Below the pieces are notes generated by a model, which did no database searches, was not told where the DNA came from, and worked only from the letters and a program-made list of their open reading frames with translations. This document shows, piece by piece, positions 2,345 through 12,844 of a DNA stretch of 14,343 nt. A program made the position numbers and the translations under genes. The first letter of the stretch is position 1. Each line of letters opens with the position of its first letter. The stretch lies in UHGV virus genome UHGV-1347164. The stretch is one strand, 5' to 3'. This DNA comes from a virus.

Positions 2345-4099
2345 TTACTCACGCCCCAATTTCCATACTGAATTATACGATAAAATACTTAGTTCAGCAG
2401 CTCTTGACCTCATATGATCGGGCGTCCATTCTCCTTGATATTTATTTTCAAATTCATCAATAAAAATTTTAACTAGCGCATATTGTGATTGTTTATAAAT
2501 TTCAAGCTTATCCACAACAGACTTATTTCCAGCTTTTTCATTTAATTCTTTTGAAAGTGGTAATAAATTTCCTATCATGCTATATACTTCAGAATCCCCC
2601 ACACTCTGAGGCTGAATATGCTCTAATGTTAATGAATCAGGCATATACTCCCCCGTTTTCATGTGATGTAACTCAAGTCTATTAAAAATGTACTGAATCA
2701 ACCTTTTATTTTTCAACTCTTGATTTGAAAATTTAAGCATAACAAACTTTTCAACAAACATATTAATGTCTGGTTTTCTCTTCACCAACATTTCAAGCAA
2801 AGACTTTATTACTTGTCTATTACTAGCTTTAGTAGAACCTTCATCCACTAAAGCCCTAGCAGCTTTAGCATACGCACTTTCAATACCTGATGGTCGCAAT
2901 GAACAAATAGCATTAAACATAAAATGAAAGCGTTCAATTGACAGCACTGCATTATTCATATCAACAAGTTTTAGCGTTCCTCTTGCTCTTGCCTTAAATA
3001 AAGATAACAAAAATGGTTTATTCTGAGATATGTTAAACAGCCTTAATGCCTGCAAACCTCGATAAACTGGTTTCATTTCCAGTTCAGGAAAATCCTGTTC
3101 TGTAGGCGATGATATTTTCACATATATCTCGGCATCTGAAAGTAGCTCATCAATGAACGCTGAAGCATCAATGTCGCCTTTTTTCCACTTATCCAGAAAA
3201 GCTTTATAAAGAGTGTCACTACTTACATAAGAATATTTTGACACCCACCAATGACGGATAAATGTCTCGATAGAACCGACACCATTACGACTAGCAATTA
3301 TTTGCCTAATTTTATTCCATTTAGTTTTTGCATCATCATCAGGATGTGTGCCATTCAGTTTCTTAAATAATTTGTTTTTTATAAGATCTACATAACTTAA
3401 GTTTAATCCCCTAGCATTCAGAGTTTCAAAGATTGTATAAGCTTCATCTTCATCATTAACTGTAATATAAATCACTTTCAGATACCGTAGAACTTGATCC
3501 CGCACAGCCTTCAACGCTTCCAAGTAGATAAATTTCTCTCTATCTACTCCTAATGTCTGGCAAAGATTATCTTCTGAAAGATACTCAGTTAAATCATTAT
3601 ATGAAGATTGCAAGTTTCTTTCTTCAAGGGACTCCGGCCCTTCATTTCTCTTATCAATATGCTGAATGTTGTTTTGAAAGTATGGCTTAGGAGTTTCATT
3701 AACTAATTTAAAAAAAGGTCTGCCATCGTCATCCATACCAGATATATAATTATTATATATTGATTGAGCTACAGCCAACTCATTTATCAACTTAAATTTA
3801 TCACATAATGCTGATAACAATATAGTAAGAGTCGTAAGACGTTGTTGACCATCTACAATCATCAGCTCAGAGCTAGTTTCCTGCCCGACCAAAACGAGAG
3901 CACCGATGAAATACTCATCATATTGATACTGCCCATCCTCCTGGTAATGAATATTGGAAACTATATCATGCCAAAGTTCACTTACTTGTTCCTTCCCCCA
4001 AGAATATTCTCTTTGGAATCTAGGGACTATATATTTTTTATTTACAGATAACACGTTTGTTAAGGTTCGAGCATTTGCTTGCAGTTCCACTGAGGCCAC
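2345..4099 (-). CDS. GmrSD-family type IV (modification-dependent) restriction endonuclease-like protein: N-terminal DUF262 (ParB-like NTPase/nuclease fold) plus C-terminal DUF1524 (His-Me finger nuclease)
   Basis: N-terminal motifs FQREYSW and DGQQRLTT are the DUF262 hallmarks. C-terminal LEHIQPQS ... GNLLPLSKELNEKAGNKS matches the DUF1524 His-Me finger pattern. 584 aa, visibly AT-rich against the GC-rich phage genes. No early ATG: the start is probably GTG at 4099 or the GTG at 4090, which is preceded by AGGTGG. Confidence 0.7.
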   Translation of the reverse strand: MASVELQANARTLTNVLSVNKKYIVPRFQREYSWGKEQVSELWHDIVSNIHYQEDGQYQYDEYFIGALVLVGQETSSELMIVDGQQRLTTLTILLSALCDKFKLINELAVAQSIYNNYISGMDDDGRPFFKLVNETPKPYFQNNIQHIDKRNEGPESLEERNLQSSYNDLTEYLSEDNLCQTLGVDREKFIYLEALKAVRDQVLRYLKVIYITVNDEDEAYTIFETLNARGLNLSYVDLIKNKLFKKLNGTHPDDDAKTKWNKIRQIIASRNGVGSIETFIRHWWVSKYSYVSSDTLYKAFLDKWKKGDIDASAFIDELLSDAEIYVKISSPTEQDFPELEMKPVYRGLQALRLFNISQNKPFLLSLFKARARGTLKLVDMNNAVLSIERFHFMFNAICSLRPSGIESAYAKAARALVDEGSTKASNRQVIKSLLEMLVKRKPDINMFVEKFVMLKFSNQELKNKRLIQYIFNRLELHHMKTGEYMPDSLTLEHIQPQSVGDSEVYSMIGNLLPLSKELNEKAGNKSVVDKLEIYKQSQYALVKIFIDEFENKYQGEWTPDHMRSRAAELSILSYNSVWKLGRE

Positions 4100-4185: not shown

Positions 4186-4564
4186 TGCCCGCTTTATGCA
4201 GTGGTTTTCATGCACATGCATGACATGAGCAAAAGCCCGCCAGTTCTGGCGGATCTGAGCAAAGACGATCCTCAATCGATCATGCGATTTCATGCAGCAT
4301 AGTCATGCACTGTCAAGGAAGTGAAAATCCGTATCTGAATGGCCACTTGAAAAACGGATCATACGGGTTTACAAAGATGAATGTTCGCTGTGAACGGGAA
4401 GCGGAAGTTAACTTTCAGATAACATAATCCATATGCACGAGAACCTCTAAAATAGAATGGGACACCTAAGCGGGGTACTTACAACGATTCTTTCCATATT
4501 CACAGTTAACACTCTGTTTGGCGTATTTTTATTCAAATAGCAAACACCAATAAAAGGAGTTTCC

Positions 4565-4900
4565 ATGAACAATATTCCCCCTATACCACAGTTAGGAATT
4601 TATGTCTCAAAAATCGATCCCACCCTACGTATCACTGTAACCGATGTTGATATTGTTGATGGTGAGGATGATTCTCCTGATGATGAATTGTTTTATTTAG
4701 TCCACTGGATCGAGGGGGAAGATGAAAGTGATATGACAGCAATGGGATTTGAGCTAGACCCAGTAGAGTGGCAGGCTTTCGTTGAATCTGAGCAATTAGT
4801 GTTTGAGCGTGATCCGTACATGGATTCAATCCCCGAAAATTCAAACTTGGCAAAGATTCGGGATTTTCTCATGAAGACTAAACAGAATGATCATTCGTAA
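4565..4900 (+). CDS. Hypothetical, highly acidic small protein (111 aa); function unknown
   Basis: Clean ATG with an AGGAG Shine-Dalgarno 6 nt upstream (aaaAGGAGtttccATG). About 26 Asp/Glu against 7 Lys/Arg by manual count. AT-rich; lies in the accessory region between the cos-like site and the end of gene A. Confidence 0.6.
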   Translation: MNNIPPIPQLGIYVSKIDPTLRITVTDVDIVDGEDDSPDDELFYLVHWIEGEDESDMTAMGFELDPVEWQAFVESEQLVFERDPYMDSIPENSNLAKIRDFLMKTKQNDHS

Positions 4901-5092
4901 GTGTAAGCATCCATCAGGAAAATGGTTTTGTAAGTGAATCATCAACTTTTAGAGAGTCTCAGACACTCCCACTTCTGCTTCTGACACAAAGCGGACGATC
5001 ACTTATCAAAATAACCGCCCACCTTACGCCTTATTTCACTCATTGCCCAAACTAGCCCCCATCAGAATGAATCCTCCTGGGGGCAACATTTC

Positions 5093-5326
5093 TTAATGCA
5101 GCCAGCTGTCGTCCTCCCACACCTTCTGCATAATTTTCATCACTTGTTTTCTTTCTTCATCCAGTTGCAGTCCGGTTAGTTCCACACCGTTAGAGCTACC
5201 TTTGCGAATGCGAATTACCGTTTTGGGATACAGGGGGCGCAGATTGCGGTAAAGCTCGGATTCAAGTGCGTCCAGGGTAGACTGGCTAATCTTCTGCTCT
5301 TTATCGATCATTATTTCAATGCGCAT
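5093..5326 (-). CDS. dinI: DinI-family protein (SOS-inducible RecA modulator homologue), about 77 aa from the internal ATG
   Basis: From Met25 of track ORF 5093..5398 the protein reads MRIEIMIDKEQ...DALESEL...KIMQKVWEDDSW, which aligns by eye with E. coli DinI (MRIEVTIAK...DALAGEL...ETWESADDW). A GAGGTG Shine-Dalgarno sits 6 nt upstream of this ATG and overlaps the stop of the preceding ORF. Confidence 0.7.
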   Translation of the reverse strand: MRIEIMIDKEQKISQSTLDALESELYRNLRPLYPKTVIRIRKGSSNGVELTGLQLDEERKQVMKIMQKVWEDDSWLH

Positions 5327-5336
5327 AAAAGTCACC

Positions 5337-5525
5337 TCAGCTGATGACATCCATTGAGCGGTTGTATTCGTGGCTTCTGATTTTTGCCATGAGTTCATCA
5401 GTCAATTCAGAAACCCACTGCAGAGCCAGCCCCTTCTCTTCATCACTACACTCACTAGCCGCTACAAGCTTAAGAAAAAAATCAATGCGCTGGAGCTTCA
5501 AAGACTCCAAAAAATAGTCCTGCAT
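5337..5525 (-). CDS. Hypothetical small protein (62 aa), first gene of a putative LexA-regulated operon; candidate Tum-like antirepressor component
   Basis: ATG at 5525-5523 is preceded by GGAGG (GGAGGaaaaATG). The track's longer 96-aa version starts at a TTG and would run through the LexA box and promoter, so the shorter form is preferred. Its TGA stop is embedded in the Shine-Dalgarno of the DinI-like gene, suggesting translational coupling. Confidence 0.5.
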   Translation of the reverse strand: MQDYFLESLKLQRIDFFLKLVAASECSDEEKGLALQWVSELTDELMAKIRSHEYNRSMDVIS

Positions 5526-5566
5526 TTTTCCTCCTATGACACCACAAGCAATACTGTATGCATAAC

Positions 5567-5586
5567 CACTGTTTATATTTACAGTA
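5567..5586 (-). promoter_or_regulatory. LexA (SOS) box overlapping a candidate promoter for the small-ORF / DinI-like operon
   Basis: Plus strand reads cACTGTttatatttACAGta, i.e. CTGT-N8-ACAG with an AT-rich spacer, a near-consensus match to TACTGTATATATATACAGTA. It lies about 45 bp upstream of the ATG at 5525. A candidate -35 TTTACA and -10 TACTGT on the minus strand overlap the box. Confidence 0.55.
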
Positions 5587-5678
5587 TATAATAATCTTAC
5601 TGATGTAAAACGTTTTTTTACGTTCATCGGCCTGATATGCCTGGTATTATTAAGAGCACGAATTGTTAACCCGCGTAA

Positions 5679-8093
5679 TTAATACAGGTTCCGCCACTTA
5701 TCATCTTCCTTCAGACGCTGGTTCCGATAGAAGATACGCAGGCCTGCTCCTGACGGAATACTGCCGCCGCGAAGGAGCAAATCGACTTCTTTCTCGCTGC
5801 CATCAAATCCCCTGGACTTCAGTTCATAGACGAGCTGCTGTCGCTGATGGTCTGTAATTCGCTGTTTGTAGTCTTTACGCCGTTTCGGTTTCACCTGGCG
5901 TAACCTTGCAGCCAGTTCCCGGCGCTCTTTTTTGCTCATACTGTGCAGGTAATCGTGCAACTCCTTGTCATCCATGCGGGTAATGTCCGTTCTGGTGTCC
6001 CCATCAGCTGATTTATCTTTCTCCTGTTGGTTCAAATTTTCAGCAAGGGGACAGTTATTGCCACGAGTCCAAGGGGCGCAAGCGCCCTGGTCGGCTGCCG
6101 CCTCCTGAACGTCAACGGCTTTACGAACCATTTTCCACTTCACTGCATGAGTGCAGATCTTGCCCTCTGCAATGGGTGACCAGATGCCATAAATACGAAT
6201 GCCGTGATCGCCATAGGCGGTCGGCTCTTCGTTGATTTCATAAGCGGTTCTGATGAGGTGATATTTACGGGGAACCAGTACGCCGCCCTGCTTCATGATG
6301 TAGGTGGCAAAACAACCAGCATCAGCAGCAGCCAGGATTGCATCAAGGCGCGGGTTATCCAGTACCGGCGCACCTGCTTTTTTGTCACCCTGTTGCCTTG
6401 CCGCCTGACCAGCCAGCAATCGCAGTTCACGGTAAGCCTGACGCCCCGGAATGCCAAAGAAGCGGAATTGCTGAACACGATGCAGAGACGCCCAGGCATT
6501 TACGTATTCAGCGTTATCACGCAGGGATTTACCCGTTTCCTTGCTGATCTCGCCAGCCAGACCACGCCCGTCAATGTTCTTACTGATGTATTTCGCGATA
6601 TAGCTTGTTGGCGTACCTTTGCGCGGGTTTATCAGCTCAGACTTAAAGCGTGGTCCCGTGTTATTGCCCAACTCCTCGCGGTCTTCACGGATGGCAAACT
6701 TACGCAGTAATGCAGTGATGGCGCGGCGGTCTTTTTTACGCATGAAACACATGAGATGCCAGTGCACAGTACCGTCATGATGCGGCTCAGCTACCCGCAC
6801 GCCATACCAGCGCAACCCGGCTTTATGCATAGCCTTACGAAATGCAGCAAACATGCCGACCAGATAATCGCTACTTTGTCTTACCGTCGCGTTTGTCCAG
6901 GTCGGGTTTGGTCTGCCGTTATTGAGCGTGGAATGGAAACGCGACGGACAGGTGATAGTGTAGAAAACGGCACAGTCACTGCGCATTTCCGCGATAAGCT
7001 CCAGACCTTTAACACAGGCCATCATCTCATTGCGGCGATGCGCAGGGTTGCTGCTGCTGGCGTTTACCACATCCTCCATGTCCAGCGTGTCGCCGTCTTC
7101 GTTCACCAGTTCATGAGAACGGAAAAACTCCAGCGACTTACGGCGCTGCTCACGTTTATGCAACACGGCTTCATAGCTGACATAGGGAGATGCTTTTTTG
7201 CTGACAAGGCAGACAGCACGCAACTGCTCTTCCCGCCATTCGCAACGCATCTTCCATAATTTCCGATACCACCAGTCGGCACACAACATACGCGCCAGCG
7301 AACCCGGGATGAGTTCATAGGGCACTGGTTTGCGGCGGTTTCTTTTCCGACGAAGTTTCTCAAACGCAGGCGGGATAACATCCAGACGCAGGGTTTCCGC
7401 TGCCACCTTTTCCCATGTCTTGCGGATTTCTTCTGGCTTAACGTCATCGGTGGCATACAAATCACCACAAGCGGCCTCAAGACACATGCTCATATGCGCT
7501 GCTACCAGGGTGGACAGGCGTTTTACCTGATCCTGACTCATTTCAGGCAGGATCAGCAGGCCCTCAAGCCCTTGATGGCTTGCCATAAAACGGAAAGAAG
7601 CGGATAGCTGACTGTCGCGTACATACTCCAGTCGCTCCAGACATGGCTTAATCGTCTCACGCAAATAGCGGGAATAAGCCTTTGGCCTGCCCAGGCTGCT
7701 GAAGTATTCGATACGTTGCATCAGCGGCTTGCTGATGTGGGTAGGCTGGGCGCTGACGTCCGACAGAATGACCATGTCCGGGTCAAAACGCTGCTGCTCA
7801 TGCGCCAGCTTTGCCCGGCTAATGAGCTTATCCTGCTCCATTTCGCGCTGGACAGGATCACGGGATTCATTAAAGAAATAACGTTCCCAGACCTGATCAC
7901 TCAGTGCCTCGCGGCGCTGCTGTTCCTGCTCGTTATCGGCAGCGTACAGAGTGATCATGTTTGAAAGTGCAGACTCCGGCGCAACTTCCTCCGGTTCCAG
8001 ATAAGGGTTAATGGCCTTTTTCGGGCCGTTCCATGAAAATGCTGCGGCAGCCTCGTTAAAGCCGCTAGAGTTGCTCATATCGTCATTACTCAT
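5679..8093 (-). CDS. A: Replication initiation endonuclease, P2 gpA-like rolling-circle (HUH) initiator
   Basis: 804 aa, ATG start at 8093-8091. Contains an HUH-type motif (TVHWHLMCF) and a tyrosine motif (YIAKYISK). Size and position downstream of the early operon match P2/186 gene A. GC-rich. Confidence 0.85.
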
Positions 8094-10905: not shown

Positions 10906-11481
10906 ATGGATTTCAGCAGCGGTGGTAAGAAAGTCATTGAACGTCTAGTTGAGGCGTATGGGTTCTCTACTAGACAGGCTCTTTGCGATCACTTGGGAGT
11001 ATCCAAGAGCACTATGGCTACACGTTACATGCGAGACATCTTCCCTGCAGATTGGGTTTTGCAATGTGCTATCGAAACTGGTTATTCACTAGAATGGTTG
11101 TCATTCGGTATAGGTGATAAAAATATTTCAAATACAAATGCGCAAATTTTAGTACCAAAGAAAAAATTAATTTCTGGAACACTAATTGAAGATGGGGCAT
11201 ATGTTTTTGATAAAGCATTCTTACCTGAAAAAATATGTAACCCATTCATCATTGAAGATCTGGATAACGAATATATATGTAGTTTTGAATATGATGATAT
11301 AAGCGATGGATTGTGGCTAATAGGTATCGACGAAAAAATTTCGGTCCGAACCCTGACCCGCTTACCTAATAACAGATTATATGTTGAAGGAGGAAATCGT
11401 GGTTTTGAGTGTTCTAGAGACGAAATACAGATTGTTGGAATTGTGTGGTGTTGCATACTAAGAAGAGCAGAAAAATTTTAA
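10906..11481 (+). CDS. cI: Immunity repressor CI (186 CI-like, N-terminal HTH; no obvious S24 Ser-Lys autocleavage motif)
   Basis: 191 aa, ATG at 10906 with GGAG 5 nt upstream. Divergent from apl-cII across a 144-bp switch region. N-terminal HTH-like segment (TRQALCDHLGVSKSTMATRYM); C-terminal part ends in a LexA/CI-like beta-rich tail (NRLYVEGGNRGFECSRDEIQIVGIV) without a GDSM-type serine motif. The C-terminal half is AT-rich. Confidence 0.65.
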   Translation: MDFSSGGKKVIERLVEAYGFSTRQALCDHLGVSKSTMATRYMRDIFPADWVLQCAIETGYSLEWLSFGIGDKNISNTNAQILVPKKKLISGTLIEDGAYVFDKAFLPEKICNPFIIEDLDNEYICSFEYDDISDGLWLIGIDEKISVRTLTRLPNNRLYVEGGNRGFECSRDEIQIVGIVWCCILRRAEKF

Positions 11482-11512: not shown

Positions 11513-12844
11513 ATGCCTATTGAATATACGTTTGATTATCGTGACGAGTTCCTTCGTAAGCCTATTGCTGAAAAATTAATATCGCTACTTGACTCTGATA
11601 TTAACTTATCTCCACTGGTTATAGATGGCGGATGGGGCACGGGGAAAACAGAGTTTTGCAAAAAAGTTGCAAATCTAATTGAAAGCAATAATCAAAAACA
11701 TAAAGTAGTTTACATTGATGCTTTCGCTGAAGATCATAATGATGCCCCAATTTTGACGTTAATGGCTGGTGTTGCTGCACTTCTTCCCGAAAATGAACGA
11801 AAGGAGTTAATAAATAAAACACTTCCAGCAATACGTTTTGGTTTGAAAACCATTTTCAAAGCAGGCACTGGATGGGTGTTAAAACAAAATGCAGATGACA
11901 TTGTTGATGGCTTCGAAGATGCTATCAAAGAAGCAACTTCGAGTGCAATTGACAGTACAATTGAAACATTATTAGACGATCATATAGAGGCGCAGAAAAA
12001 CATCGAGACACTGAGAAGTACAATATCGCATCTTACAGAGGAATATAAAATAACGATTTTTATAGACGAACTGGACAGATGTAAACCTACATTCGCTCTT
12101 TCAATCATAGAAAATATCAAACACATTTTTGAAATAAAAAATTTAAATTTTGTATTGGTTGCAAAGACTCAACAACTCAAGGCATCAATAAGGCATCTGT
12201 ATGGTTTATCCATAAATGCAGATCAGTATTTAGACAAATTCATTAAGTTTACATTTGTATTGCCAGATACATATAAACCAGATAACTATACACCTGCATA
12301 CGCATCTGTTGCTTTATGGGGAATATTAAAAAATGATTCTCAAAAACTGCAAGAAGTAGACGAATCATGCGGGCATATCATAAAAACGATAATACAAAGG
12401 GCTAAGTTGTCTTTACGTGAAGTAGAAACATTATCACGCCACTTTGAAATATATCAGGTGCTATCTCAATCTGGAATTGGTCCAGGGAAAGTATTTGGTT
12501 ATTCATTATATCGAATGTTAGGGGTAATATTATACTCTCTAAATCGCCCTTTGGCATTAAGTTATCTAGATAATTCTGTGGATGCAGAAAGCATTATCAA
12601 AACCTTAGGCTTTGAATATTTAAGTTACGATGAAGATATTTATAGGATAGATAATACTGAATGTGCTATTTATGGGATCGTACTGGACTATATTGATACA
12701 ACATCTCCATTCTTTATAAAAGATGATGAAACCAGAAGAAAATGGACTGAACGTGCTACCTATGATTTCTTTCAAAACGGCTTAGACGCAGTGCCTCCCC
12801 GAACACTTGTTTCGTCCACCATTGAAGCTTTAATGTTGAACTAA
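11513..12844 (+). CDS. KAP-family P-loop NTPase (candidate prophage-encoded defence or lysogenic-conversion gene)
   Basis: 443 aa with Walker A GGWGTGKT and the KAP-type Walker B IFIDELDRC, separated by a moderately hydrophobic segment (APILTLMAGVAALLP...). GGAG 6 nt upstream of the ATG. Strongly AT-rich; starts 31 bp after the cI stop and ends 80 bp before int. Confidence 0.8.
   Translation: MPIEYTFDYRDEFLRKPIAEKLISLLDSDINLSPLVIDGGWGTGKTEFCKKVANLIESNNQKHKVVYIDAFAEDHNDAPILTLMAGVAALLPENERKELINKTLPAIRFGLKTIFKAGTGWVLKQNADDIVDGFEDAIKEATSSAIDSTIETLLDDHIEAQKNIETLRSTISHLTEEYKITIFIDELDRCKPTFALSIIENIKHIFEIKNLNFVLVAKTQQLKASIRHLYGLSINADQYLDKFIKFTFVLPDTYKPDNYTPAYASVALWGILKNDSQKLQEVDESCGHIIKTIIQRAKLSLREVETLSRHFEIYQVLSQSGIGPGKVFGYSLYRMLGVILYSLNRPLALSYLDNSVDAESIIKTLGFEYLSYDEDIYRIDNTECAIYGIVLDYIDTTSPFFIKDDETRRKWTERATYDFFQNGLDAVPPRTLVSSTIEALMLN

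Follow-up and report, generated by a model that had tools for sequence, protein, structure and literature searches.

A probable SOS-induction operon encoding a TumA-like antirepressor and a DinI-family protein in a Fels-2-like prophage

The window considered here, that is, the whole 14,343-nt stretch of viral DNA that was analysed (UHGV virus genome UHGV-1347164), carries on its minus strand a compact operon of two small genes, ORF1 and ORF2, which is headed by two overlapping LexA boxes and a candidate promoter (Table 1). All the features that a preceding sequence-only reading had described for a LexA-boxed two-gene operon are present. ORF1 starts with an ATG at 5525, preceded by the Shine-Dalgarno sequence AGGAGG (5535-5530), and its TGA stop (5339-5337) lies, as that reading had pointed out, inside the Shine-Dalgarno sequence of ORF2 (GAGGTG, 5338-5333), with ORF2 itself running from an ATG at 5326 to a stop at 5095-5093. 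A hairpin at 5331-5348, spanning the ORF1 stop and the ORF2 Shine-Dalgarno sequence, can be drawn tentatively, its fold being no more stable than that of shuffles (z about -1.1), and a scan of the window against Rfam returned no RNA family. The operon stands directly after the replication gene A and on the same strand, the gpA homologue (5679-8093, minus strand) ending 57 nt before the -35 hexamer, and the same order is found in coliphage 186, phage PSP3, and Salmonella phage Fels-2. A longer, 96-aa version of ORF1 beginning at an ATG at 5627 was rejected, since translation would then begin ahead of the promoter and operator; this start is also absent from the Fels-2 and PSP3 annotation, and the start of the 62-aa version has a strong Shine-Dalgarno sequence.

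Table 1. Features of the operon and the presumed target of its first product, in window coordinates
Feature	Position	Strand	Basis or remark
Candidate -35 hexamer TTTACA	5604..5609	-	Read from sequence; counterpart of 186 p95
Candidate -10 hexamer TACTGT	5581..5586	-	Identical to annotated -10 of 186 p95
LexA box 1	5567..5586	-	TACTGTAAATATAAACAGTG; core CTGT-N8-ACAG at 5569-5584
LexA box 2, degenerate	5552..5571	-	Core GTGG-TTATGCAT-ACAG at 5554-5569
ORF1, 62 aa, TumA-like, presumed CI antirepressor	5337..5525	-	Profile and Fels-2 homology
ORF2, 77 aa, TumB, DinI-family	5093..5326	-	Pfam DinI and Tum/PSP3 homology
Possible transcript-end hairpin (tentative)	5055..5084	-	7-bp G+C-rich stem, 9 nt after ORF2 stop
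186-type CI immunity repressor, 191 aa, presumed ORF1 target	10906..11481	+	Pfam

The second gene is the more readily placed of the two. ORF2 matches the Pfam DinI family (PF06183) over the full profile (1-63 of 63) with an E value of 6.6e-23 and 81.3 bits against a cut-off of 24.2, and it also matches the structure of E. coli DinI (1GHH) over residues 1-75 (E 2.7e-6), both of which agree with its earlier description as DinI-like. In the NCBIfam equivalog for the chromosomal DinI, however, it reaches 42.7 bits where the cut-off is 111, and it is therefore a paralogue and not DinI itself. Among phage proteins, it is 100% identical to the DinI-family protein of Fels-2, 78% identical to TumB of PSP3, and 41% identical (E 3e-24) to residues 71-145 of the 186 Tum protein, whose C-terminal part the earlier reading had described as DinI-related. 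From its membership of this family, which is the basis for the expectation, ORF2 would bind RecA filaments and modulate the co-protease. Downstream, a stem of GCCCCCA/UGGGGGC may mark the end of the transcript; its fold is not better than that of shuffles (z -1.1) and its T-tract is poor, and its position agrees with that of t95a of 186.

ORF1 is 97% identical at the protein level to STM2728 of Fels-2 and falls into phrog_698 in a search against PHROG profiles (E 5.9e-38), but its kinship with 186 Tum is far more distant. The pairwise alignment with Tum that had been proposed for both products succeeds for ORF2, whereas BLASTP aligns no part of ORF1 with 186 Tum, and here the link emerges from profiles. 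The N-terminal 70 residues of Tum match phrog_698 in register (6-44 against 6-44, with an E value of 5.9e-6); a bridging family, phrog_8554, is matched both by ORF1 (E 1.1e-8) and by the Tum N-terminus (E 3.4e-12); and in hhalign the ORF1 family pairs with the Tum N-terminus over columns 3-42 to 3-42, with an E value of 6e-5 and a probability of 64%. The resemblance to phrog_1993, the family of PSP3 TumA, is fainter, the match of ORF1 having an E value of 0.002 and the family-to-family comparison being weak (hhalign E 0.027). These comparisons support homology of ORF1 to the Tum N-terminus and TumA as a remote relationship, at profile level only. The AlphaFold2 model of ORF1 is a two-helix hairpin (pLDDT 90); when Foldseek compared this model with the PDB and with predicted structures of viral proteins, no match reached E <= 0.001, and those that came up were generic helical hairpins. 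Pfam, NCBIfam, and PADLOC searches likewise assigned ORF1 to no family, and a sequence search for a relative of known structure found none. In RefSeq and GenBank the homologues of ORF1, among the matches listed, are mostly labelled "hypothetical protein", often with the wrong 96-aa start, and they could carry the name TumA-like antirepressor.

The operator and the promoter are interwoven. The core of box 1, CTGTAAATATAAACAG (5584-5569, minus strand), is the one exact CTGT-N8-ACAG site in the 14.3-kb window, where 0.15 would be expected by chance, and the 20-mer around it (5586-5567) departs from TACTGTATATATATACAGTA at three positions, a match that arose in 0/200 shuffles, which bears out the claim of a near-consensus box. 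From the end of box 1 to the ATG of ORF1 there are 43 nt, close to the 45 bp given earlier. The sequence-only reading had described this box and missed a second, overlapping and degenerate one, whose core GTGGTTATGCATACAG (5569-5554) shares one base with box 1. As judged by their sequence, the two boxes make up a colicin-type double LexA operator. The corresponding pattern, CTGT-N8-[AC]CAGTGG-N8-ACAG, occurs in 74/83 Fels-2-type loci and in 0/162 loci of the 186 and PSP3 types, and a 53-nt query taken from the Fels-2 operator finds matches in more than 1000 plasmids, two of which were inspected and have the match some 40 nt ahead of the gene for colicin N and of a colicin-E1-like gene, respectively. 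The likeness to these colicin operators (ColE1-like, colicin N) extends over about 35 nt, TATACTGTA-N-ATA-N-AA-N-CAGTGGTTATAT-N-TACAGT, and in each case a pair of overlapping SOS boxes precedes the Shine-Dalgarno sequence, whereas the sequence upstream of the boxes, including the -35 region, differs and the genes downstream, colicins in the one case and antirepressors in the other, are unrelated. In colicin genes two LexA dimers are reported to sit on such an operator and to repress very tightly (PMC2994835); by analogy, the same occupancy and tightness are predicted for the promoter of the window.

As for the promoter itself, the two candidate hexamers are separated by a 17-bp spacer, and the position of the -10 hexamer (5586-5581) makes it the left arm of LexA box 1, so that box and promoter overlap as had been proposed. 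The layout is that of the experimentally annotated p95 of 186 (TTCACA, 18 bp, TACTGT), where the -10 TACTGT likewise lies inside the box of a LexA-repressed promoter. A generic sigma-70 scan of 4400-5800 called no site; TACTGT agrees with TATAAT at only 3/6 positions, which explains the missed candidate, and given that the scanner made no call the assignment leans on the analogy with p95. Since p95 is annotated as an SOS-dependent promoter in the 186 record, transcription from the window promoter is predicted, again by analogy, to be LexA-dependent and induced by DNA damage. One could object that box 1 is a chance AT-rich palindrome and that the operon, which follows gene A immediately and in the same orientation, is expressed by read-through of early lytic transcription, free of SOS control, a reading with which the silent promoter scan and the appearance of at least one CTGT-N8-ACAG in 27/200 shuffles of the window would be in keeping. 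We consider this very unlikely in view of the rarity of the full 20-mer match and of conservation: in 236/245 related loci an exact core box precedes the TumA-like gene by no more than 200 nt, and its spacing from the start codon is constant across three divergent families, with the half-sites kept and the spacers variable. The sharing of the operator with LexA-regulated colicin genes and the annotation of the 186 counterpart as SOS-dependent point in the same direction, namely to a genuine LexA operator.

The nearest described relative is Fels-2, which carries essentially the same element (STM2728, STM2726.1), the operon DNA being 96.7% identical; the two have in common the double LexA operator, an intergenic gap of 11 nt, and the position after gene A; its record is annotated with a TumB-like DinI protein. 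It differs in that a gene of orf97 size (STM2726, 732 bp) continues after the operon, where the window has other cargo. In PSP3 a LexA-boxed promoter directly after gene A likewise serves a gene of about 60 aa and then a DinI-like gene of 77 aa, the former (tumA) recorded as "similar to 5' end 186 tum; UV induction of prophage" and the latter (tumB) as "similar to dinI and 3' end of 186 tum"; the differences are that its TumA belongs to another sequence family, phrog_1993, and that it has a single LexA box. The 186 phage itself combines a distant N-terminal homologue of ORF1, the N-terminal parts being only about 20% identical, with a DinI-like C-terminus in one fused polypeptide of 146 aa, which acts as antirepressor of 186-type CI by binding it and blocking its binding to the operator (PMC3121763), and it differs further in its annotated nested internal starts, its single LexA box, and the orf97 gene downstream. 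A looser parallel is offered by the dinI-gfoA/gftA operons of the Gifsy prophages, which are LexA-controlled and pair a DinI homologue with a small antirepressor (Lemire et al. 2011, PMC3121763) that inactivates a non-cleaved repressor and can act in trans (PMC3121763), although there the order is reversed, with dinI first, the phages are lambdoid, and the repressor is of another family (PMC3121763). That a stop codon divides tum into two genes in both Fels-2 and PSP3 has been stated before, and the upstream PSP3 gene was there given as the antirepressor, second-hand, from a personal communication (Lemire et al. 2011, PMC3121763). The split Tum module is thus already described for Fels-2 and PSP3, it is very common in enterobacteria, and as established knowledge it makes the window another copy of the module and not a discovery.

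The combined length of the two products, 62 + 77 aa, is indeed close to the 146 aa of Tum, as had been noted, and this, together with the existence of a single gene in 186, could also be taken to mean that the pair is a broken tum, a pseudogene decaying after a nonsense mutation in the fused gene, in a prophage that is no longer inducible. We hold this to be extremely unlikely, for several features speak for two working genes instead. ORF2 has its own ATG and Shine-Dalgarno sequence; dN/dS lies at 0.03-0.12 for the two halves (0.06-0.12 for ORF1, at dS 0.5-1.3, and 0.03-0.10 for ORF2), with dS reaching about 1.6; 82/83 Fels-2-type and 51/81 PSP3-type loci carry the split form; and even in the 186 record nested starts are annotated in frame, among them a GTG at 29292 from which a DinI-like C-terminal product would arise. 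Moreover, Fels-2, a carrier of the split form, is reported to be responsible for the lethal lexA-null phenotype, which implies LexA control in that phage. Both genes are real and under strong purifying selection.

The module is spread over 484 homologous protein clusters and at least 593 viral contigs, it is also present in phages of Salmonella, Klebsiella, and Yersinia, and part of it matches 1166/5426 complete E. coli genomes, at up to three places per genome. Of 245 related loci, 78 have a fused DinI part, 135 have it as a separate gene, and 32 lack it, with the LexA box and the TumA-like part retained, and the TumA part is accordingly the core of the module. The repressor on which it would act consists of Phage_CI_repr (E 7e-29) and Phage_CI_C (E 1.5e-23), and the Pfam scan of CI found no further family, hence no LexA-like peptidase domain, which makes induction by self-cleavage unlikely. 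Among PSP3-type phages, by comparison, CI mostly has two N-terminal domains (64/72 loci). The family of TumA agrees with that of the CI N-terminal domain in 210/212 loci, two mosaic loci breaking the rule, and it tracks this domain and not the C-terminal one. The match spans about 6 kb of conserved genes and holds between 186-type and PSP3-type phages, in which the intervening cII and A are each about 90% identical to those of 186; in more distant relatives the relationship is graded, and the co-variation is partly confounded by the shared ancestry of linked genes. Within the Fels-2 type the median pairwise identity is 100% for TumA, 75% for the CI N-terminal domain, and 34% for the C-terminal oligomerisation domain of CI. 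Over their whole length, the CI proteins that accompany near-identical TumA copies share only 37-63% identity, which a strictly specific binder would not predict unless its target is the conserved N-terminal domain.

This last pairing may equally be cited for the view that ORF1, as a small conserved protein induced by the SOS response, serves some other purpose, such as a host-directed or replication-related one, the prophage being induced by another route and the action of ORF2 on RecA being the main output, and the remoteness of the ORF1-Tum link and the lack of a Pfam, NCBIfam, or PADLOC family, a solved relative, or an informative fold match for ORF1 would fit such a view. We nevertheless regard it as unlikely. 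ORF1 shares its position, promoter type, and an in-register profile match with the Tum N-terminus and PSP3 TumA; TumA type follows CI type across the intervening conserved genes; CI has no self-cleavage domain; and the 32 loci that have lost the DinI gene and kept the LexA box and TumA-like gene mean that DinI cannot be the core output. The alignment of ORF2 with Tum, the ORF1 profiles, and the position, strand, and promoter together support what the earlier reading had proposed, a split Tum-like system or an antirepressor with a RecA modulator, and the region is very probably the SOS-induction operon of a Fels-2-like prophage of the P2/186 family, encoding a TumA-like antirepressor and TumB.

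In this prophage the module would work as follows. In an undamaged cell, host LexA would sit on the double operator over the -10 region and keep the operon off, and upon DNA damage the RecA-stimulated self-cleavage of LexA would free the promoter. Both small proteins would then be made from a single transcript, their translation being closely coupled. ORF1, the 62-aa helical hairpin, would act as the antirepressor and bind CI, most likely through the N-terminal DNA-binding domain of the latter, and CI thus bound would be kept off its operators, allowing lytic growth without CI cleavage. TumB would bind RecA filaments and modulate the SOS signal as an accessory and not an essential component. 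When the dinI homologues were deleted from Gifsy prophages, induction did not change significantly (PMC3121763), which makes the role of ORF2 less certain. The sequence features, homologies, selection on both genes, LexA box conservation, and CI co-variation were obtained here, and the antirepressor activity of 186 Tum and PSP3 TumA and the LexA control in Fels-2 are taken from the literature. A search of that literature for the binding site of Tum on 186 CI found none, and one for TumA/TumB returned unrelated papers only.

We would go further only tentatively, with a suggestion that is possible and somewhat short of probable: the TumA-like antirepressor may read the conserved N-terminal domain of CI, so that one near-invariant allele serves many CI variants and co-resident Fels-2-type prophages induce one another in trans, and the double operator may set a high and late SOS threshold. 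Neither the recognition of the CI N-terminal domain by TumA nor the double-operator threshold was found in the literature searched, and the tracking of this domain by TumA and the colicin-like operator of the Fels-2 type furnish testable hypotheses on antirepressor specificity and induction threshold. The module matters in that it sets the moment at which prophages of a very common enterobacterial family give up lysogeny after DNA damage, a step that influences how their cargo spreads, for instance the defence genes next to the copy in the window.

With regard to these surroundings, homology to Fels-2 ends at the ORF2 stop, and the cargo that follows consists of a 111-aa ORF and a GmrSD-like gene; defence genes flank the module in the window. 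The apparent truncation of the terminase gene P in the list of open reading frames is an artefact, the frame being open to the window edge.

The window is part of a Fels-2-type prophage of the P2/186 family (Peduoviridae), and the operon that it carries is real, correctly interpreted and already described. The sequence-only reading had proposed a LexA-boxed pair of genes that may encode a split version of Tum, the 146-aa SOS-induced antirepressor of coliphage 186, or else an antirepressor and a RecA modulator, and the sequence, on the minus strand, reads as it described. Over the 700-bp operon segment, identity is 96.7% with Salmonella phage Fels-2 and 97-98% with several phages of Escherichia and Klebsiella. 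Of the Fels-2 counterparts, STM2728 is annotated as hypothetical and STM2726.1 as "DinI family protein; similar to TumB of PsP3"; in the same position, the PSP3 record has tumA, described as "similar to 5' end 186 tum; UV induction of prophage", followed by tumB, described as "similar to dinI and 3' end of 186 tum". According to Lemire et al. (2011, PMC3121763), Tum resembles an antirepressor fused to DinI; citing a 2002 paper and what G. E. Christie had told them personally, they add that a stop codon divides tum in Fels-2 and PSP3 and that the antirepressor is the upstream PSP3 gene. The Fels-2 identity, the PSP3 annotation and this statement together make the interpretation correct but not new, and the residual novelty lies in a colicin-type double operator and in the link of TumA to the N-terminal domain of the immunity repressor CI. 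The title of Bunny et al. (2002) attributes a lexA-null lethal phenotype to the Fels-2 prophage. Homologues of the element form 484 protein clusters and occur in at least 593 viral contigs; of 5426 complete E. coli genomes, 1166 have a match, at up to three places per genome; among the RefSeq E. coli matches listed, ORF1 is labelled "hypothetical protein".

Features of the window, in window coordinates
Feature	Position	Strand	Remark
Terminase P	left end	+	cut by window edge
Portal Q	right of terminase P	+	
Variable cargo region	between portal Q and operon		
GmrSD-type protein	2345-4099	-	584 aa; in the cargo region
phrog_17127 ORF	4565-4900	+	111 aa, acidic; convergent with ORF2
tum operon region	5610-5093	-	
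ORF2 (TumB)	5326-5093	-	77 aa
Hairpin	5331-5348	-	spans ORF1 stop and ORF2 Shine-Dalgarno
ORF1 stop codon, TGA	5339-5337	-	
ORF1 (TumA-like)	5525-5337	-	62 aa
ORF1, long call	5627-5337	-	96 aa, from ATG
Second LexA box	5569-5554		degenerate
First LexA box	5584-5569		near-consensus
Proposed LexA-covered stretch	5552-5586		
Replication gene A	5679-8093		followed by Dam-type methylase and other early genes
CI repressor, 186-type	10906-11481	+	
KAP-family NTPase	11513-12844	+	443 aa; between cI and int
Integrase	right of KAP-family NTPase	+	

ORF1 is preceded by an AGGAGG Shine-Dalgarno sequence, and its stop codon falls, as had been noted, within that of ORF2 (GAGGTG). Both genes are under strong purifying selection: across phages of Escherichia, Salmonella, Klebsiella and Yersinia, with dS of 0.5-1.6, dN/dS is 0.06-0.12 in ORF1 and 0.03-0.10 in ORF2, and these low values reject the idea that either is a decaying fragment. 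Database gene calls for ORF1 are often longer (78-109 aa); their start codons precede both the promoter and the LexA boxes, and are therefore probably mis-called. A 6-bp hairpin (GTCATC...GGTGAC, then TTTTAT) is no more stable than the folds of shuffled sequences (z -1.2); it could couple translation of ORF2 to that of ORF1 or attenuate transcription.

ORF2 is a DinI-family protein, as the first reading held: it matches Pfam PF06183 (E 6.6e-23) and aligns with E. coli DinI as solved in structure 1GHH. The resemblance to 186 Tum expected of both ORFs is direct for ORF2 (Tum residues 71-145, 41% identity, E 3e-24), and for ORF1 it emerges from profiles and not from BLASTP, which gave no alignment. 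ORF1 belongs to no family in Pfam, NCBIfam or PADLOC, and no solved relative was found, but it matches phrog_698 (its own family, E 5.9e-38), phrog_8554 (1.1e-8) and phrog_1993 (0.002), the last defined by PSP3 TumA; the first 70 residues of Tum match the same three in reverse order (phrog_1993 1.5e-23, phrog_8554 3.4e-12, phrog_698 5.9e-6), in register for phrog_698 (6-44 to 6-44). Profile-profile comparison aligns columns 3-42 of ORF1 with 3-42 of the Tum N-terminus (E 6e-5), the common pattern being a hydrophobic helix, a conserved Cys and then x5-6-(L/I)AL-x2-(V/I)-x-E(L/I). These profile links, the ORF2 match, the PSP3 record and PMC3121763 all bear out the split Tum-like reading. In the AlphaFold2 model (mean pLDDT 90), ORF1 forms a hairpin of two helices, residues 2-23 and 28-61, a fold too generic for its structural neighbours to be informative.

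Upstream of ORF1, the near-consensus LexA box overlapping a candidate promoter was confirmed, although it proved to be not single but one of two overlapping boxes. Its core, CTGTAAATATAAACAG, is the sole exact CTGT-N8-ACAG in the 14.3 kb (0.15 expected by chance), and the 20-mer has 3 mismatches to the consensus TACTGTATATATATACAGTA, equalled in 0 of 200 shuffles. The candidate SOS promoter (TTTACA, 17 bp, TACTGT), whose -10 hexamer doubles as the box's left arm, has the layout of the annotated SOS promoter p95 of 186 (TTCACA, 18 bp, TACTGT); a generic promoter scanner did not call it, because TACTGT matches TATAAT poorly. The second box, GTGG-TTATGCAT-ACAG, overlaps the first by one base. Of the 83 Fels-2-type loci, 74 share this paired pattern, which is missing from all 162 loci of 186 or PSP3 type; divergent relatives keep the LexA half-sites with a variable spacer. 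A 53-nt Fels-2 operator query matched more than 1000 plasmids, mostly predicted to be mobilizable. Of the two matches inspected, one precedes a colicin N gene and the other a colicin-E1-like gene, each by ~40 nt; the operators of these genes (~35 nt) align base for base with the Fels-2-type operator. For colicin genes, occupation of such a double operator by two LexA dimers is reported to repress very tightly (PMC2994835). By analogy, repression of the window promoter is probably very tight as well, so that it would fire only in a strong SOS response.

We collected 245 related loci (L-numbered below), whose TumA-like sequence is of Fels-2, PSP3 or 186 type. In 236 of them the 200 nt upstream contain an exact LexA box. 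The DinI part takes three forms: it is fused in 78/81 loci of 186 type, a separate gene in 82/83 Fels-2-type and 51/81 PSP3-type loci, and absent altogether from 32, Cronobacter phage ESSI-2 among them. The constant core is thus the LexA box with the TumA-like part, and DinI is an optional partner, which fits the report that Gifsy dinI deletions had no induction phenotype (PMC3121763). ESSI-2 (L244, 7971-8195), in whose record the TumA-like gene is unannotated, and 31 IMG/VR loci have the box and this gene, the locus as a whole lacking a DinI-like gene.

In 80 loci with ORF1 98-100% identical, CI, 5.4 kb away, is (with one exception) only 37-63% identical to that of the window. Much of this puzzle disappears when the two CI domains are compared separately: median pairwise identity within the Fels-2 type, which is 100% for TumA, is 75% in the N-terminal helix-turn-helix domain of CI and 34% in its C-terminal domain, the last no better than between families. 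Among distant relatives, N-terminal identity to the window falls stepwise with that of TumA (61-64%, 48-52% and 40% at TumA identities of 88-92%, 48-52% and 20%), the C-terminal values being 25-35%, 26-37% and 31%. Each TumA family is paired with its own CI N-terminal-domain family in 210 of 212 loci. Shared ancestry partly confounds this co-variation; the pairing nevertheless holds between 186-type and PSP3-type phages despite intervening cII and A genes both ~90% identical to those of 186, and linkage alone is therefore not a sufficient explanation. The simplest reading is that TumA would contact the CI DNA-binding domain, in agreement with the report that Tum keeps CI off its operator (PMC3121763). 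The two mismatched mosaics, L210 (186-type fused Tum with PSP3-like CI) and L147 (PSP3-type TumA with 186-like CI), offer natural test cases of antirepressor specificity. Some 186-type CI proteins carry two tandem N-terminal helix-turn-helix copies (8/72 Fels-2-type and 64/72 PSP3-type loci), reaching 308-318 aa (e.g. L049, L060, L026, L073, L021, L072).

In the mechanism that we propose, LexA, probably as two dimers, would block the -10 region, as the operator sequence and analogy suggest. Upon DNA damage LexA would be cleaved and both genes transcribed, and TumA would sequester CI through its N-terminal domain, opening the early lytic promoter without CI cleavage; these two steps draw on the literature on 186, PSP3 and Fels-2 and on the TumA/CI co-variation. 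A Pfam scan found no peptidase domain in CI. TumB, judged by its family membership, may modulate the SOS signal by acting on RecA filaments.

The GmrSD-type protein (Pfam GmrSD_N and GmrSD_C; PADLOC candidate HEC-06, E 4e-90) is encoded in the variable slot that separates portal gene Q from the tum operon; an identical copy of it occurs only in L054, and 37%-identical relatives in L037 and L082. The KAP-family P-loop NTPase (PADLOC candidate PDC-S20, E 1e-173; weak PifA and QatA similarity) is present in just 3 of 80 Fels-2-type loci (L018, 92%; L006 and L045, 54%). The 111-aa ORF (function unknown) has no match in Pfam or PADLOC; named DUF8087 protein in some RefSeq records, it is common to the 132 E. 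coli genomes with a match covering at least 80% of a 1.3-kb query.
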